Shown here: positions 2,679-40,135 of the stretch, piece by piece
Layout: each line of letters starts with the position of its first letter
Numbering within the stretch: the first letter of the stretch is position 1
Notes under the pieces: generated by a model
The model's database searches: none
Seen by the model: the letters and a program-made list of their open reading frames with translations, nothing else
What the model was told of the DNA's origin: nothing
Assembly (NCBI GenBank): GCA_963767245.1
Contig: CAVYDG010000024.1
Location: forward strand, 124,927-188,926
Origin: an uncultured Alphaproteobacteria bacterium
GTDB lineage: Bacteria; Pseudomonadota; Alphaproteobacteria; Rhizobiales; Beijerinckiaceae
DNA: 64,000 nt
Direction of reading: 5' to 3'
Translations under genes and position numbers: made by a program

Positions 2679-4326
2679 CCGCCATTTCTCAAACAGGGTA
2701 GCGCATCGGGTCGCCAAATCAGGCAAAAGTTGTTTTGCGAGAACGACTTGCGCTGATTTGGAGAGGCGGCCCGATGCAGACGGAGTGTAGCGCAGAACGG
2801 AGCATGTTTGGACGGGTCGAGGGTCGGGCCGTTATGGCGGAGTTCGACGGCGGCGCGCTGACGTCCGACGCGGGCGGCCTGCTGTTGGGCGCCGCCGACC
2901 AACGTCTGGGCCTAGTTCGCCGGATTGCGCGATGTTTTCGTGACGCGAGAGACCCGAGGCTCGTCGAGCACTCAGTCGCCACGCTCATCGGGCAGCGCGT
3001 GTTCGGCATTGCGCTCGGCTATGAGGATCTGAACGATCACGACGAGCTTCGTCACGACCCGCTGATGGCGGTGCTGGCGGGCAAGCTCGAGGCCAGGCGC
3101 GAGGATTGCGCGCCGGTGGCGGGCAAATCGACGCTGAACCGGCTCGAACTGTCGCGCGAGACGCCCACGAAGTACCGCAAGATCGCACATGAGCCCGCGG
3201 CGATCGAGGCCCTGTTCGTCGACCTGTTTGTCGAAGCGCACGCACGGGCGCCCAGGCAGATCATCCTCGACCTCGACGCCACGGACGACCCGCTGCACGG
3301 CGATCAGGAAGGCCGCTTCTTTCACGGCTACTATGATTGCTACTGCTACCTGCCTCTTTACGTGTTCTGCGGCCGGCATCTGCTGGCGGCCAAGCTCAGG
3401 CCGTCGAACATCGACGCCAGCGCCGGCTCGGTTGAGGAAGTCGCGCGCATCGTCGCGCAAATTCGCAGGCGTTGGCCGCGAACGCGCATCCTGCTGCGCG
3501 CCAACTCTGGGTTCGCCCGCGAGGCGCTGATGGCCTGGTGCGAGACGAACCGGGTGGACTTCGTCTTCGGGCTCGCTCGCAATGCGCGGCTGGTCGAAGA
3601 GATCAGCGTCGAACTCCTGCAGGCCGAGGCGGAGGCGTCCGCGACCGGCAAGCCCGCTCGCCGCTTCAGGGACTTCCGTTATGCGACGCTCGACAGCTGG
3701 TCGCGCCGGCGCCGGGTCGTCGCCAAGGCGGAATGGACAAACGGCGAGGCCAATCCGCGCTTCATCGTCACCTCGTTGAACAAGGCCGAGACCAGCGCCC
3801 GCTTTCTCTATGAGAAGGTCTACTGCGCCCGCGGCGAGATGGAGAACCGGATCAAGGAATGCCAAGGCGACCTGTTCGCCGACCGAACCTCGACCGCAAC
3901 CCTGGGCGCCAACCAGCTGCGGCTCTGGCTCGCCTCGTTCGCCTATGCGCTCCTGTGCGCCCTCAGGCGCATCGGTCTTGCCCACACCCAGTTCGCCGAA
4001 GCGACCTGCGGCACAATCCGGCTCAAGCTCCTCAAGCTCGCCGGTCTCGTCCGCGTCAGCGCGCGGCGCATCAAATTCGCGCTCGCCTCAGCCTGTCCCT
4101 ACGCCGACGAATGGCGGCTGGCCGCCGCCCGCCTCGTCACAACCGCCTGACGCGTCGCCGCGACGCCGAAAAAACGCGGCAATCCAACCCACAGCCCACC
4201 GGAGACCCCCAAAAGACCGACCCCATCCGCGCAAACCGCGCCAGGGATGCGCTCGTCCTCACTACAGTCACTGCGCAATCATTGTCGGGGCGCGAAAGAC
4301 CAAGCCCCTCCTATGAGAAAACCGGG
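2679..4326 (+). mobile_element. IS1380-family insertion sequence, 1648 bp, 4-bp target duplication TTAG
   Basis: TTAG at 2675-2678 and 4327-4330. Imperfect terminal IRs: left CCGCCATTTCTCA, right (reverse complement) CCCGGTTTTCTCA. Encloses a transposase. Confidence 0.93.
2774..4150 (+). CDS. IS1380-family DDE transposase (second catalytic Asp appears to be Asn)
   Basis: FDGGALTSDAGGLLL, GYEDLND, LDLDATDD, HGDQEGRFF and RGEMENRIKE motifs. RANSGF where the family has RADSGF. Confidence 0.95.
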   Translation: MQTECSAERSMFGRVEGRAVMAEFDGGALTSDAGGLLLGAADQRLGLVRRIARCFRDARDPRLVEHSVATLIGQRVFGIALGYEDLNDHDELRHDPLMAVLAGKLEARREDCAPVAGKSTLNRLELSRETPTKYRKIAHEPAAIEALFVDLFVEAHARAPRQIILDLDATDDPLHGDQEGRFFHGYYDCYCYLPLYVFCGRHLLAAKLRPSNIDASAGSVEEVARIVAQIRRRWPRTRILLRANSGFAREALMAWCETNRVDFVFGLARNARLVEEISVELLQAEAEASATGKPARRFRDFRYATLDSWSRRRRVVAKAEWTNGEANPRFIVTSLNKAETSARFLYEKVYCARGEMENRIKECQGDLFADRTSTATLGANQLRLWLASFAYALLCALRRIGLAHTQFAEATCGTIRLKLLKLAGLVRVSARRIKFALASACPYADEWRLAAARLVTTA

Positions 4327-4511
4327 TTAGCACCGGCTGCACAGCGGCGCCGTGGTGCTACTTCACCCCGGGAATCCCGGTGCTGCCGTTCGGCAACGCG
4401 CTCGGGGCGGCGATCAGCGGCGGCTTCCCTCTCTGGAGCCTAGCCTGTTTCTGCATGGTTCCCCGGCGGCGCGCCGCTAACGGCAATCGTCGCCTCGCGG
4501 AAGCCGCTTAG
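4327..4511 (+). pseudogene. Detached 3' end (~60 codons) of the large tail-fibre-like gene
   Basis: Removing 2679-4326 plus one TTAG restores the frame: ...TTGF-STGCTAAPWCYFTPGIPVLPFGNALGAAISGGFPLWSLACFCMVPRRRAANGNRRLAEAA*, stop TAG at 4509-4511. Confidence 0.85.
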
Positions 4512-4730
4512 CGGAGGCGCGCGCCATGTTCGACGCGAACATTAACATCAACATCATCGCGGTCGGAATCTTCGCCTTCCCGTTTGAACATCGGCGCCGC
4601 CAGGACTGTCTACCGGCGCGCGGCTAGTGGGACAACAGCCACATCCCGATCGCCGAGCGGCGGAGCGGCAATCCCCAGCCGACCTGTCCTATCCGCAACT
4701 GGGCGCGGCCAAGATCGACGAGGGCTTGCC

Positions 4731-5477: not shown

Positions 5478-6075
5478 GGGACCGCAGCCCGATCTGGATT
5501 GGCCTCGCCGACCTTCTTCTCTGCGTCGTCTGCGTGGTCATCTGCGCCGTTGCGCCGATCAAGGCCAAGACAGATGGCGTCAACCCAAAGCTGAATATCT
5601 ACTCTCGGCCGACTGGGACGTCATGCTCGATTCGGATGTCGATCTTTGGGTCGTCAATCCGTCGCCCAAGCCCATATTCTACGGCTCCCGGCAGGTCGGT
5701 TGCGCCGATCTCGATCGCGACAGTCTCGGGTTCCAGACCTCGCTGGTGACGCTCGCCGACGGGTCGACCGTTCGCGCCGTCTCGAACAAGGAAGTGACAT
5801 CGGTTCGCTGCTTCGAGCCGGGTCACTGGGACATCGGGGTCAACCTCTATTCCGACCGCGAACTCGCCAAGGGCCGGAAGGACATCAAGGTTCATGTCGA
5901 AATCGTCGGCCTCAACCCGGAGGTTCGCACGATCTTCGCCAAGGACGTGACCCTCGATCGCGTCGGCGAAACCGTGAACGTCATTTCTTTCGACATGGAC
6001 CGCGCCGGCAAGATCACGCTCACCGATCCGCCGCTCGAGCCAATTACCGACGCTTATTGGGGGCGGAAGGAATGA
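5474..6075 (+). CDS. ExbD/MotB-like single-TM protein (TM Asp) fused to a YfaP/DUF2135-like periplasmic domain; -1 frameshift at ~5590
   Basis: GTG 5474 gives VRDRSPIWIGLADLLLCVVCVVICAVAP...GVNPK; the -1 frame continues AEYLLSADWDVMLDSDVDLWVVNPSPKPIFYG...LDRDSLG into track ORF 5623..6075. Confidence 0.68.
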
Positions 6076-6583
6076 CCTTTTTGAGCGCCTTCGCGCTTTC
6101 GTTCGGACTTTTGCTCGCCGGTCTGTCGCTCATTGCCGCATGGATGTTCCGCACCGCCGGGCGCCCTTGGCGGTCAAACTTGCCCTGCCGGCCCTATTGC
6201 TCGCCCTCGCTTGTCTTACTCCGTACGAAGTCAATTCGATGCTCGGCCTGCCGAGAATCGCCGAGCTCGCTGCGCTGCCTGAGCGGGCCGAACTCATAGC
6301 CTTCGTCGCCCATGACGCGGACAAGCGCGCCGACTTGTGGCTCCGCGTCGAGGATGCTCCGCCGCGCGCCTATGAGATCGCCATCGACAAAGAGATGAAG
6401 AAATTGCTGCAGGACGCTCGCGATCGCAAGGAACATGGCCGACGGGTGATGCTGGTCATGCGGGCCGCGGCTACCGGCAAAGAAACCGGGCGCCAAGGCG
6501 TGATCAGGTTGCGATCCGCCGATCCTGCCTACGCAATTGATGAGAGCGCCTTCGCCCTCCCGAACAAGGGCCGTGGCGACTAA
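6072..6583 (+). CDS. Two-TM membrane protein with periplasmic 'DLWLR...PPRAYEI' domain; -1 frameshift at ~6160
   Basis: ATG 6072 overlaps the previous stop. MTFLSAFALSFGLLLAGLSLIAAWMFRTAG joins track ORF 6140..6583 (APLAVKLALPALLLAL...). Confidence 0.62.
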
Positions 6584-37789: not shown

Positions 37790-37846
37790 TTTCCGTGCCA
37801 AAAGGCCGCGCAACCCCTTGAAAAGTCTCGATTCGGACGAGAGAAG
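37790..37846 (+). repeat. Left part of a GANTC-containing intergenic repeat (copy 1), split by IS1595
   Basis: TGAAAAGTCTCGATTCGGACGA (37819-37840) is 21/22 identical to the reverse complement of 50058-50079. Outer boundary approximate. Confidence 0.7.
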
Positions 37847-37908
37847 GGCGATTATAACGTTGACAAAGCCAAAACTTGAGAGTATGAATGGCGGCATAGG
37901 AGCTATCC

Positions 37909-38857
37909 ATGTCCGCCGCCATCCTTCAAAACCCGATCTTCACCGATACTGACAAGGCCCGCCAATGGCTTGAGGCCCGCATTTGGGCTTCTGGGCGACC
38001 CTGCCCACACTGCGGCGTTGTCGATAACTCCACGGCTCTCCAAGGCTCCAAGCACCGTCCCGGTGTCTACCAGTGCAACGCCTGTCGCGAACAATTCACA
38101 GTGACGGTAGGAACGGTTTTCGAGCGCTCCAAAATTCCGCTCTGCAAATGGCTCGCGGCACTCTTTCTCATGGTTTCCAGCAAGAAAGGCGTATCCGCGC
38201 ACCAAGTTCACCGCTTGCTTGGCATCTCATACAAGAGCACATGGTTCATGATGCACCGTTTGCGCGAAGCAATGCGCTCAGGTGATCTTGCTCCGATGGG
38301 TGGTTCGGGCAATGGTCGTTGAGGTTGACGAGACGTTCATCGGCAAGCGTGAAGGCTTCGAAGCTAAGCCGGGTTGGGTCCGCCACAAGAACACGGTTCT
38401 GACGCTCGTGGAGCGCGGAGGTCGTGCGCGTTCATTCCATATCGACGAGGCGACAAAAGAGAACATCGTCCCCATCGTAAATGAGAACCTAAACCGCGAA
38501 AGCCATCTGATGACGGACGAGGCTCGCCGTTACGAGACAATCGGCAAGGACTTTGCCGCTCATGACGTTGTCGATCATCATCGCGGCGAATACGGCTACA
38601 CGGACCACGAGACGGGCGCGAAGGTCAACACGAACACCGTCGAAGGCTATTACTCAATCTTCAAGCGCGGCATGAAAGGCGTTTATCAGCACTGCGGTGA
38701 AAAGCATCTGCACCGCTATCTGGCAGAGTTCGATTTCCGTTATAGCAACCGCTCTGCCCTTGGCGTCGAGGACCGCGAGCGTGCTGACTTGCTGGCGAAG
38801 GGCATCGTTGGCAAGCGCCTTACCTATCGACGGCCTCACGGGCTCAATGTCGCCTAA
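37909..38857 (+). pseudogene. IS1595-family transposase with N-terminal Zn ribbon; frameshift at ~38311
   Basis: CPHC...CNAC ribbon, TVTVGTVFE and KSTWFMMHRLR, then VEVDETF, LMTDE and NTVEGYYS...YLAEFDFRY in the next frame. Confidence 0.9.
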
Positions 38858-38882
38858 CAAGCGCAATTGGGAGTTCTAGGGA

Positions 38883-39137
38883 ATGACCGTAACCCCACGC
38901 GAGCTTAGGCGCGTACGTTTCAGCGCGCCTAACTCAGAAACTCGATCTCTAACGATCCATCTTCATGCAGGACCGATCGACCATGAGGAATCCATCGTCC
39001 TCTCGGTCTCTTGCGACGGGCTGATGAGTTTAATGCGAGGGATTCAGGAATATCGGGCTCTGCATAAACTCCCCATTCCTCATACTGTGAGGCGGAAGGG
39101 AAAACCCTCTCTCTCTGTCGTATCTGATCATCGCTAG
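38883..39137 (+). CDS. IS passenger hypothetical protein (84 aa)
   Basis: ATG 25 nt after the transposase stop; ends RKGKPSLSVVSDHR. Confidence 0.45.
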   Translation: MTVTPRELRRVRFSAPNSETRSLTIHLHAGPIDHEESIVLSVSCDGLMSLMRGIQEYRALHKLPIPHTVRRKGKPSLSVVSDHR

Positions 39138-39287
39138 CGCGCTCTTTTTGGCGATGCTGCGGCCCGCTCTTTGACACCGTATCGACGGCGCGCTCAAATC
39201 GCTCCCACGCATCGGGAACCAACTCGACTTCCTTGGTGCCTCTCATAAGGTCATCCTTATCACGCGCCATACATTGGAACCACCCCA

Positions 39288-39908
39288 ATGGTCGAAACGC
39301 CAGCGCTGCCGCCACAACAAAATATCACAATCACGACAAACTTATTAACCGCCCCGCTATACGCCGAGCAACTAGGGCACCTTTGTGTTGCATGGTCCAA
39401 TCTTGAGTGGCACATGTTTCTATTGTTTCAGTTTATCTGCGGAGCGCCACCAGCAGTCGCTAGAACAACTTTCTACGCGATAGAAAGTAATCGGGGCAGA
39501 CGGGAAATATTGAAGTCAGTAGGAGGGGCCGTACTCTCCAAGCAAAGTCACAGAGACGCACTTGATGACATTCTCCGCCGAATTGGCAAAACAGCCTCTG
39601 TAAGAAACAAATATGTCCATGACACATGGGGTGTCGCGGCCACTCAAAAGCATGAAATCTTTCAAATGCGACTATCCAACCCGCAAACATTTCAAGATAT
39701 GGAGGAAGTTACGGTATCCGATCTAAAAACTTGTTGTGAAAATATTCAAAAAGTCACTGAGGCGCTGAACGATTTCCGGGAGAAGGTTCACCCATCGCTC
39801 GAATCATCGCTACGAACACTTCGCGAACAGCCTGGGATAGCCCTGCAGTTCGCCAAGAAAGGCAGTCATCCGGGACAGAAGCCAAAAGGGCATCGACGCC
39901 AGCGTTGA
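39288..39908 (+). CDS. IS passenger protein with HEPN-like Rx4H motif (putative RNase toxin/defence effector)
   Basis: Helical protein 'GHLCVAWSNLEWHM...LDDILRRIGKTASVRNKYVHDTW'; RNKYVH at 39603-39620; visibly AT-richer than the flanks. Confidence 0.6.
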   Translation: MVETPALPPQQNITITTNLLTAPLYAEQLGHLCVAWSNLEWHMFLLFQFICGAPPAVARTTFYAIESNRGRREILKSVGGAVLSKQSHRDALDDILRRIGKTASVRNKYVHDTWGVAATQKHEIFQMRLSNPQTFQDMEEVTVSDLKTCCENIQKVTEALNDFREKVHPSLESSLRTLREQPGIALQFAKKGSHPGQKPKGHRRQR

Positions 39909-40026
39909 TCATCTTATGTGAAACCATAGGCGAGCCTGCGCGTGCTTTAGCGCGGGACACCTTCACGCCGGCCTGTCCCGCTTCGTTTAACATCCCATCC
40001 TCGGCTTTGTCAACGTTATAATCGCC

Positions 40027-40135
40027 GAGAGAATCCAAGCCTATTATTTTGCTGGATTTTGTCTTCGGCGCGGTCCAGGCGGGCCCGAACCCGTCCAGGC
40101 GAGGTTTTCCAAATTTGGTTGGCCCAAGCAAGACG
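40027..40135 (+). repeat. Right part of intergenic repeat copy 1
   Basis: GAGAGAATCCAAGC...TTTTGCTGG parallels GAATAAGACCAAGC...TTTTGCTTGG of copy 2. Outer boundary approximate. Confidence 0.55.

Follow-up and report, generated by a model that had tools for sequence, protein, structure and literature searches.

A HEPN-like passenger gene and its small antisense neighbours in an IS1595-family insertion sequence

The element and its cargo

The 64,000-nucleotide stretch analyzed here (the window; contig CAVYDG010000024.1 from an uncultured alphaproteobacterium of the Beijerinckiaceae) harbors an insertion sequence (IS) of ~2.18 kb in total, which is almost certainly a transporter IS (tIS) of the IS1595 family. 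Its inverted repeats (IRs) enclose a transposase gene and 1,145 bp of cargo (38858-40002, from the transposase stop codon to the right IR), and at least three conserved open reading frames (ORFs) are packed into this non-transposase DNA: ORF206, which encodes a helical protein, and two small minus-strand genes named sB and sC (Table 1). The ORF206 cargo is probably a HEPN-type ribonuclease (RNase), and a toxin or defence function of the cargo is plausible. Members of the ORF206 family ride in at least seven divergent IS1595 elements, one of them from a deltaproteobacterium, with identities to ORF206 down to 24%.

The two IR arms, of 24 nt each, are 100% complementary. Their sequence is unique to these two sites in the window (0 occurrences expected from 100 shuffles), which holds a single copy of the element by IR search over the 64 kb. 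The IR starts with GGCGATTAT and the transposase shows an E-x7-K signature (NTVEGYYSIFK). The element may be ISNwi1-like, a subgroup with IRs ending in ggnnatTAT and a DDEK catalytic signature in the transposase. A preceding reading of the same DNA from the letters alone (the sequence-only reading) had described perfect 24-bp IRs around a transposase and ~1.1 kb of AT-richer cargo, and this is confirmed: the GC content is 51.6% in the cargo and 48.8% in ORF206 alone, against 63.3% in the flanks. Its proposal of an IS1595 element with passenger genes is likewise supported by the transposase domains, the IRs and the length of the cargo, which together amount to the architecture of a tIS. As defined in the TnCentral preprint, a tIS carries passenger genes inside its IRs, and such elements are restricted to the IS1595 and IS66 families.

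Several observations point to an insertion. The flanks read GAGAGAA-G / IS / GAGAGAA-T, that is, a 7-bp direct repeat, or seven matches out of eight. Contigs from four soil-metagenome runs were aligned to the region of the element. In the metagenome X1, a contig from a related strain has the left flank in a diverged version, and this runs on without any IS into the right flank (from position 40032). Several other metagenome contigs match the window up to 37845 and then continue with TCCAAG, the letters that follow the right-hand GAGAGAA; they look like the unoccupied target, which is the pattern expected of an insertion, with the caveat that the 33-45 bp to the left of the IS are a dispersed, high-copy short repeat in the same metagenomes. 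This left-flank repeat (37801-37845, ...CCCTTGAAAAGTCTCGATTCGGACGAGAGAA) contains a TCTCG-attcgga-CGAGA hairpin, reaches a word depth of up to 66x in X1 and is found there with many different sequences on either side. The window contains it a single time, and no Rfam family matches it. Its 3' edge coincides exactly with the insertion point of the IS, possibly owing to a target preference. The element itself was scanned for Rfam families and for terminators, and none was found.

Table 1. Coordinates of the element in the window and of related loci, the latter numbered on their own contigs
Feature	Location	Strand	Remarks
Left inverted repeat	37847-37870	plus	sequence GGCGATTATAACGTTGACAAAGCC
Right inverted repeat	40003-40026	minus	perfect complement of the left arm
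Target-site duplication, left copy	37839-37845		GAGAGAA; 8th base G
Target-site duplication, right copy	40027-40033		GAGAGAA; 8th base T
IS1595-family transposase	37909-38857	plus	N-terminal zinc ribbon and DDE domain (VEVDETF, MTDEA, NTVEGYYSIFK)
ORF84	38883-39137	plus	variable cargo slot between transposase and sB
sB	39127-39270	minus	diverges from ORF206; start 17 bp from the ORF206 ATG
ORF206, HEPN-like protein, 206 residues	39288-39908	plus	WSNLE, residues 36-40; RNKYVH, residues 106-111
sC	39754-39927	minus	57 residues, or 52 from the conserved Met at 39912; convergent with ORF206, overlaps its last ~50 codons
L001	IRs 4056 / 6689		target-site duplication TCAGAGG
L009	IRs 2308-2353 / 4679-4724		
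L010	IRs 1961-1994 / 4499-4532		perfect 34-nt IR
L011			contig cut; partial element
L031 (L015 and L017 of the same type)	IRs 3166-3206 / 6526-6566		cargo 29-31% identical to ORF206
L023, deltaproteobacterial metagenome-assembled genome	IRs 3050-3075 / 5851-5876		TAATAA(A) duplication; cargo 24% identical
L019			IRs not found; remnant of the transposase C-terminus only

The transposase and candidate promoters

In the window, the transposase is split into two ORFs by one extra G at 38314/38315. Pfam analysis assigns a Zn_ribbon_IS1595 domain to the first ORF (PF12760, 1.9e-9; 37909-38322) and a DDE_Tnp_IS1595 domain to the second (PF12762, 3.3e-30; 38282-38857), and NCBIfam reports a match with transpos_IS1595 (NF033547, 6e-30). 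Dropping one G of the GG at 38314-38315 yields a single ORF of 315 residues (GGSGNVVEVDETFIG), which corresponds to the intact 294-residue transposase of the related element L001 (GGPGKVVEADETYYG). The extra G is probably an assembly error or a private mutation, the transposase being intact in nature, because every contig covering 38314 in three independent soil metagenomes (X1, X2 and X3) is devoid of that base and because the intact L001 transposase matches the repaired frame. A programmed frameshift was considered and rejected: no slippery site is present, a +1 shift would be required, and the three metagenomes do without the extra base. As the extra G is probably a consensus or assembly indel, other frameshifts in the window may be artefacts as well.

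Both IRs contain an inward-facing TTGACA hexamer. At the left end, TTGACA (37860-37865) is followed after a 17-nt gap by TATGAA (37883-37888) and by AGGAG ahead of the transposase ATG; the transposase promoter therefore likely overlaps the left IR, to judge from these motifs. In the right IR, the hexamer (40008-40013, minus strand) lies ~75 nt upstream of sC and is a candidate promoter on the same kind of grounds. A consensus promoter scan was uninformative and does not list the left-IR candidate, whose -10 element ends in A.

ORF206 and its protein family

The sequence-only reading had pointed to a 206-residue helical protein with WSNLE and RNKYVH motifs, and both the ORF and its AlphaFold2 model bear this out. 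The model (predicted local distance difference test, pLDDT, 84) is mostly helical, with helices at residues 23-51, 55-64, 68-82 and 86-111, a β-hairpin at residues 113-127 and a 38-residue helix at residues 143-180. The basic tail (residues 181-206) is modelled at pLDDT below 60.

A search of a large protein collection returned 37 close homologues, mostly from soil metagenomes, with the addition of two Bradyrhizobium isolates and one alphaproteobacterial metagenome-assembled genome. The segment RNKY[VI]HDTW is almost fixed among them, and the residues W36, E40, R106, N107, H111, D112, T113 and W114 are all invariant in 28 full-length relatives. At larger distances (79 members, 17-36% identity), conservation above 90% is confined to E40 (77/79), R106 (78/79) and H111 (78/78), followed by N107 (71/78) and W114 (67/78). 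The sequence-only reading had staked its assignment on the conservation of the Rx4H motif in homologues, and this motif turns out to be the family's most conserved feature. An exhaustive profile search extends the family to 2,562 representative clusters (E≤1e-3); it is thus a large family, and an unannotated one. ORF206 itself has no match in Pfam, NCBIfam or PADLOC, and PHROGs analysis of the 79 relatives returns unnamed families only.

As to where these proteins occur, no relatives were found in viral contigs or phage records, and the sole one in plasmid records is a distant Paracoccus protein. Foldseek against BFVD reports one unnamed 159-residue phage protein (E 9e-5, TM 0.58/0.74), which is probably a member of the family and is uninformative. 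Another relative, P0148, is located among small phage-like genes. The Paracoccus member (173 residues) is encoded on the plasmid pFER4 of Paracoccus ferrooxidans (L034, 4261-5480), where its gene, in one operon with a response-regulator transcription-factor gene, overlaps the stop of the latter by 4 nt and adjoins a sulfate ABC transporter operon, a non-mobile and regulatory-looking context. Longer relatives of 230-310 residues (P0073, P0076, P0084, P0103, P0115 and others) have a CxxC zinc ribbon as an N-terminal fusion to the HEPN-like domain; the NCBIfam model ECs_2282_CxxC is matched by 6 of the 79 distant members, and Lar-like and YgiT-type ribbons are found as well.

The family also tends to cluster in islands of small hypothetical genes. 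Distant paralogues lie within a few kb of the main copy at L004 (1444-2064), L019 (900-1466 and 6471-7160), L022 (1899-2438) and L015 (2804-3142). The L015 paralogue closely follows the main copy (2078-2692) and falls within the final 340 bp of the contig, where the right IR was not located.

Is ORF206 a HEPN protein?

According to a survey of the HEPN superfamily (PMC3710099), its members share a four-helix up-down core that takes inserts between the second and third helices, and an Rx4-6H motif at the end of helix-3, in which the residue directly after the Arg is polar and in most cases N, D or H. Another acidic residue, conserved upstream and usually part of Ex3[KR], lies beside the active site. 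The ORF206 family displays the Arg, the Asn that follows it, the four-residue spacing and the His. In the ORF206 model the motif closes a helix that ends at H111 and is followed by a strand, and in the model of P0185, a 173-residue deltaproteobacterial relative (pLDDT 84), the corresponding helix (residues 76-100) ends one residue before H101. In both models RN..H stands where a ~25-residue helix finishes at its C-terminus, and the conserved Glu belongs to the first long helix; two short helices separate them, and the chain goes on through an inserted hairpin or loop into a long final helix.

Profile searches point in the same direction. Of the 79 distant members, five are matched by the PADLOC Csx1 model, with 6.5e-5 as the best value. 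Within a chosen set of ten members, six match Csx1 at E≤0.05, always at profile positions 317-396 out of 440 in total and always across RNxxAH; we read these positions as the C-terminal HEPN part of Csx1. CARF-HEPN models are matched by one of these six and by a seventh member (0.016-0.046), and the Pfam family HEPN_Cthe2314 by 2 of the 79 members at 0.038. As far as profiles go, the support for HEPN appears weak but coherent.

Several results count against a HEPN assignment. The conserved Glu stands outside the usual Ex3[KR] context, there being no Lys or Arg at +4. The Csx1 matches are weak and short, and none of the Pfam, NCBIfam or PADLOC models recognizes ORF206 itself. PDB sequence and profile searches (A1, A2 and sub-clade A5) returned coiled-coil noise only. 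For neither of the two models did Foldseek against the PDB retrieve the HEPN fold supposed by the sequence-only reading: the hits are generic helical bundles (E≥0.07), no HEPN chain appears in the top 50, and no four-helix up-down core superposing on solved HEPN domains was detected. Foldseek is known to discriminate poorly among all-helical bundles.

These results would be accounted for if ORF206 were a helical bundle not homologous to HEPN, in which E...RNxxxH is convergent or serves binding and not catalysis. The Foldseek outcome would fit this, as would the want of a significant Pfam HEPN family, the extra β-hairpin and the long last helix. However, a non-homologous bundle would not lead one to expect the HEPN-typical composition of the motif, its position at a helix end, the conserved Glu upstream and the repeated matches to the HEPN segment of the Csx1 and CARF-HEPN models, and the low discrimination of Foldseek takes weight from the structural negative. 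We regard this explanation as unlikely, if by no means negligible, and lean to some extent towards ORF206 being a HEPN-type RNase and, putatively, a member of the superfamily.

Small minus-strand genes around ORF206

The sequence-only reading had presented a single-effector unit and suggested that the small neighbouring ORFs could be partners of the HEPN-like gene. The first idea is too simple, as two conserved small minus-strand genes accompany ORF206. As to the second, the conserved neighbours are these two, sB and sC, and not the most obvious one, ORF84, which has no relatives. ORF84 has no Pfam match, no tblastn match in any related locus and no evidence for gene status; its candidacy as an antitoxin was dropped, since it is conserved nowhere among the related loci.

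Of 13 loci, 11 have a conserved and open sC frame, with the consensus M-I-x-A-G-x-x-A-L-L-A-S-F-P-E-D-V-L-S-E-R-T-P-G-L-x-Q-A-V-x-D-I-F-x-A-M-L, and its relatives are called as genes on 14 metagenome contigs. The two overlapping frames are phased such that the wobble position of either is the second codon position of the other. The third-position differences of ORF206 amount to 0.57-0.70 over codons 17-156 and fall to 0.22 over codons 181-200, no higher than at position 2; this drop within the overlap is, at the level of aligned sequences, the signature of dual coding. In the comparison of the window with L015 and L017, the minus frame is 54-57% identical and the plus frame over the same DNA ~27% (hand count from the alignment). 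Synonymous resampling of the antisense openness is weakly informative, at 0.1-0.65 per locus. A role of sC as a superfamily-wide partner is not supported: L023 is devoid of such a frame, and a 79-residue antisense gene beside P0148 is unrelated in sequence.

The sB product has the core ELxPDAWERFERAVxxVxKSxPQHR, usually followed by a Lys/Arg-rich tail, and its frame in the window runs on to 38929 (113 residues). Matches by tblastn were obtained in L001, L011, L016 and L017, and a 56-residue gene is called at this place in L031 and L032. Substitutions by codon position amount to 0.41/0.38/0.64, and this dominance of the third position is in keeping with coding on the minus strand. Neither sB nor sC belongs to a Pfam family.

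A further minus-strand gene, sD (~78 residues, MSFI.RELDRIS...YEQLYAAQQAL.WALEP), is found in L001 (5533-5778), L015 (1815-2048), L017 (725-961) and L018 (493-723). It overlaps the 3' end of a DUF3892 gene in the way that sC overlaps that of ORF206, which suggests that small antisense genes are strung along these elements.

Recurrence in other IS1595 elements

In the related loci of Table 1, an IS1595 transposase lies upstream of the family member in the same orientation, and a single IR pair encloses both wherever both contig ends exist. The HEPN-like gene is always at the right end of these elements, next to the right IR. The content of the slot beside the transposase varies: it is occupied by ORF84 in the window, by DUF3892 and sD in five loci, and by unrelated small ORFs elsewhere. 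The DUF3892-type elements L031 (5672-6412), L032 and L033 contain in addition a 246-residue ORF, without a Pfam match, after the HEPN-like gene and inside the IRs. L011 presents two identical copies of the right-end IR (1737-1760 and 2257-2280), 520 bp apart, downstream of its HEPN-like gene; the end may have been duplicated, or a second element may abut there.

The family is also found outside ISs. About half of the close homologues with a readable context have no transposase nearby, including those of the Bradyrhizobium loci L003 and L004 and those of L020-L022. Pairwise identities range over 47-65% for the transposases and 23-72% for the cargo proteins, and the claim that the two co-diverge was dropped (Pearson r 0.24, p 0.38, 15 pairs). 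The association of IS1595 with this cargo is thus recurrent, and strict co-inheritance is not supported because the identities of transposases and cargo proteins are uncorrelated; an exchange of cargo modules between related ISs is equally possible.

If we assume plain hitch-hiking, ORF206 would be a host-beneficial or neutral gene with no special tie to the IS. The tIS of the IS1595 family are indeed defined by unrelated passenger genes, and both the uncorrelated identities and the homologues outside ISs would then be expected. The same family is nevertheless found inside IS1595 elements at mutual identities from 72% down to 23% and in two phyla, always at the IR-proximal right end and in the orientation of the transposase, which is hard to obtain by independent chance captures. 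Plain hitch-hiking consequently appears to us distinctly improbable.

Among plasmid records, the elements with the nearest IS1595 transposases (49-58% identity) have cargo too. In Methylobacterium oryzae pMOC1 (L036, 757-3310) and Roseomonas marmotae p1318-1 (L039, 3425-6056), the transposase is followed by a hypothetical gene of 266-288 residues, a PIN/VapC gene and an ORF of ~61 residues. In L039 all these genes lie inside the IRs (GGGGATTATGTATTTGACAAACAC), and the PIN domain is confirmed (5e-6); L036 yielded no IR pair. The Mesorhizobium element L035 carries a DUF3892 gene and a 256-residue ORF, the latter at the place that the 246-residue ORF takes in L031. L041 (5688-7660) comprises an IS1595 transposase, a gene with a SocA_Panacea domain (168 residues) and a 127-residue ORF with a hydrophobic C-terminus; the latter two look like a PanA-type toxin-antitoxin (TA) pair as IS cargo. 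The same contig also bears a second IS1595 transposase and a leftover sC gene beside a truncated DUF3892 gene, with no HEPN-like gene. Profile searches did not find the HEPN-like gene in any of the plasmid elements or in L041. RNase- or TA-type cargo hence seems to recur in this IS group, and the PIN/VapC and Panacea genes of related IS1595 tIS lend support, by analogy, to the toxin or defence idea.

A proposed role for the module

The element may be described in two halves. The left one is the transposition machinery, probably expressed from the promoter overlapping the left IR, and the right 1.15 kb form an accessory module. This begins with the variable slot and continues with sB (minus strand), ORF206 (plus strand) and sC (minus strand), the last lying over the 3' end of ORF206. 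The plus-strand genes (tnp, the slot gene and ORF206) would be carried by one transcript from the left-IR promoter. On the other strand, sC, sD and sB would follow in series downstream of the right-IR TTGACA, giving a transcript antisense to the whole of ORF206 that, to go by the order of the genes, might hold its expression in check. ORF206 would be a divergent, metal-independent RNase of the HEPN type, with an active site formed by R106, N107 and H111 at the end of the long helix and by E40 from the first helix. As a growth-arresting or abortive-infection (Abi)-type effector, it would favour retention of the element (addiction) or be of service to the host, in either case to the benefit of the element.

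The proposal of the sequence-only reading, a HEPN-motif toxin or defence cassette, is accordingly upheld in part. The tIS with its passenger, the conserved motif at a helix end and the weak Csx1 matches speak for it; the Foldseek results, the family libraries and the missing defence-island setting do not. No known defence or TA system was recognized by PADLOC, which reports no family for ORF206, ORF84 or the minus-strand ORF128 (38929-39315, in which the first 48 residues from the ATG at 39270 are sB). ORF206 is located on a mobile element, and some of its homologues lie among clusters of paralogues and hypothetical genes.

The functional reading has further observations to contend with. The neighbourhood of the locus is of the housekeeping type and no defence island. 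On one side of the element stand ppx and ppk with two further ORFs, for a Sel1-repeat protein and a small secreted protein, and on the other purN, purM and an AI-2E transporter gene; the IS is ~120 bp downstream of the purN stop. The Paracoccus member behind a response regulator hints at non-toxin roles within the family, and the divergence of the cargo, as seen above, does not follow that of the transposase (n = 15 pairs). The sC frame is degenerate in the Bradyrhizobium loci L003 and L004 despite an intact ORF206 gene, and in L041 it survives without ORF206 after a deletion. The sB gene is confined to IS-borne copies and absent from all IS-less loci. Neither of them behaves as an obligatory antitoxin, which argues against a simple obligatory TA pair, since sC is degenerate in two genomes where the HEPN-like gene is intact and sB is missing from the loci that lack the IS. 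A toxin, addiction or defence role of ORF206 is put forward tentatively. The whole chain, in which the right arm of a tIS would be a HEPN-type RNase effector checked by the opposing sC/sB unit, for retention or for an Abi-type benefit to the host, is a possibility that comes close to an even chance without reaching it.

ORF206 could otherwise be an accessory of transposition: by binding nucleic acids or processing RNA, it would tune the expression of the transposase or the assembly of the transpososome, with sB and sC as co-regulators; it might, for example, cleave or bind the long tnp-slot-ORF206 transcript. Its fixed position beside the right IR in at least seven divergent IS1595 elements, opposite a slot of variable content on the transposase side, would be understandable on these terms, and so would the inward TTGACA hexamers in both IRs, the persistence of the ORF206 gene without sC in Bradyrhizobium, and the distant relatives that are fused to zinc ribbons (6/79) or follow a response regulator. 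Against it, about half of the close homologues with readable context (L003, L004 and L020-L022 among them) have no transposase nearby; paralogues cluster in islands of hypothetical genes, and related IS1595 elements transpose without ORF206, carrying PIN or other cargo. We hold such a function to be rather unlikely, and retain the effector role as our tentative proposal for ORF206.

Carried further, this proposal would have an IS1595 tIS lineage domesticate a new HEPN clade as a selfish module, opposed by the sC/sB antisense unit in an addiction or transposition-control circuit, and the family of 2,562 clusters would be a widespread HEPN clade missing from Pfam, NCBIfam and PADLOC. This extension is speculative and on present evidence unlikely.

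ISs are usually seen as a transposase alone, and the tIS are a little-studied exception. If a HEPN-type module is recurrent in the IS1595 lineage, beside PIN and Panacea modules, then the smallest transposons also carry functions of the toxin or addiction type; this, if true, would bear on the persistence of ISs, on the spread of toxin and defence genes and on the annotation of such genes. A large family with a strict E...RNxxxH signature is covered by no curated library. In addition, nature offers in the sC/ORF206 pair a clean case of overlapping antisense genes whose dual-coding signature can be measured.

Comparison with known systems

The type of IS, the tIS concept and the HEPN toxins are already known. 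Three things appear to be new, namely the unannotated E...RNxxxH family, the repeated finding of its members at the right end of IS1595 elements, and the antisense partner that overlaps the gene: no description of the cargo module, of its family or of the antisense partner was found in the searchable literature, ISfinder being outside that search. The element resembles known IS1595 tIS in its zinc-ribbon and DDE transposase, its short IRs beginning with GGnnATTAT, its 7-8-bp target duplication, the presence of extra genes inside the IRs and its size of 2.2 kb. It differs from them in its cargo, which is not a resistance or metabolic gene but a conserved three-gene module composed of the HEPN-like gene and two antisense small genes.

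Also close are the tIS with PIN/VapC or Panacea cargo (pMOC1, p1318-1 and L041). Their transposases are 49-52% identical to that of L001, their IRs are similar (a pair was found in L039 and none in pMOC1), and the transposase is likewise followed by a small toxin-like gene set. In the PIN/VapC elements, however, the effector fold is PIN and the partner genes are co-directional, and the HEPN-like gene is present in none of them.

ORF206 resembles the minimal HEPN toxins and Abi proteins (HepT/DUF86 of HEPN-MNT, AbiD/AbiF/Abi_2, AbiU2, AbiV and the HEPN domain of Csx1/Csm6) in being small and all-helical, in its R-N-x3-H at a helix end, in its conserved acidic residue upstream and in its carriage on mobile elements. 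In contrast to them, it gives no significant match to their Pfam, NCBIfam and PADLOC models, no similarity to HEPN domains of solved structure emerges from Foldseek against the PDB, and it is not accompanied by an MNT gene or another known antitoxin gene. Further differences are a β-hairpin inserted behind the motif and a basic tail whose coding stretch is shared with an antisense gene.

Finally, type I TA loci with a convergent 3' overlap are exemplified by txpA/RatA and bsrG/SR4 of Bacillus subtilis. As in these loci, an antisense transcript would run across the 3' end of the putative toxin gene, to the extent that the order of the genes in the element indicates one. Unlike in type I systems, the antisense unit of the element codes for a peptide that is conserved, and in place of a small membrane peptide the putative toxin is an enzyme-like protein of 206 residues.

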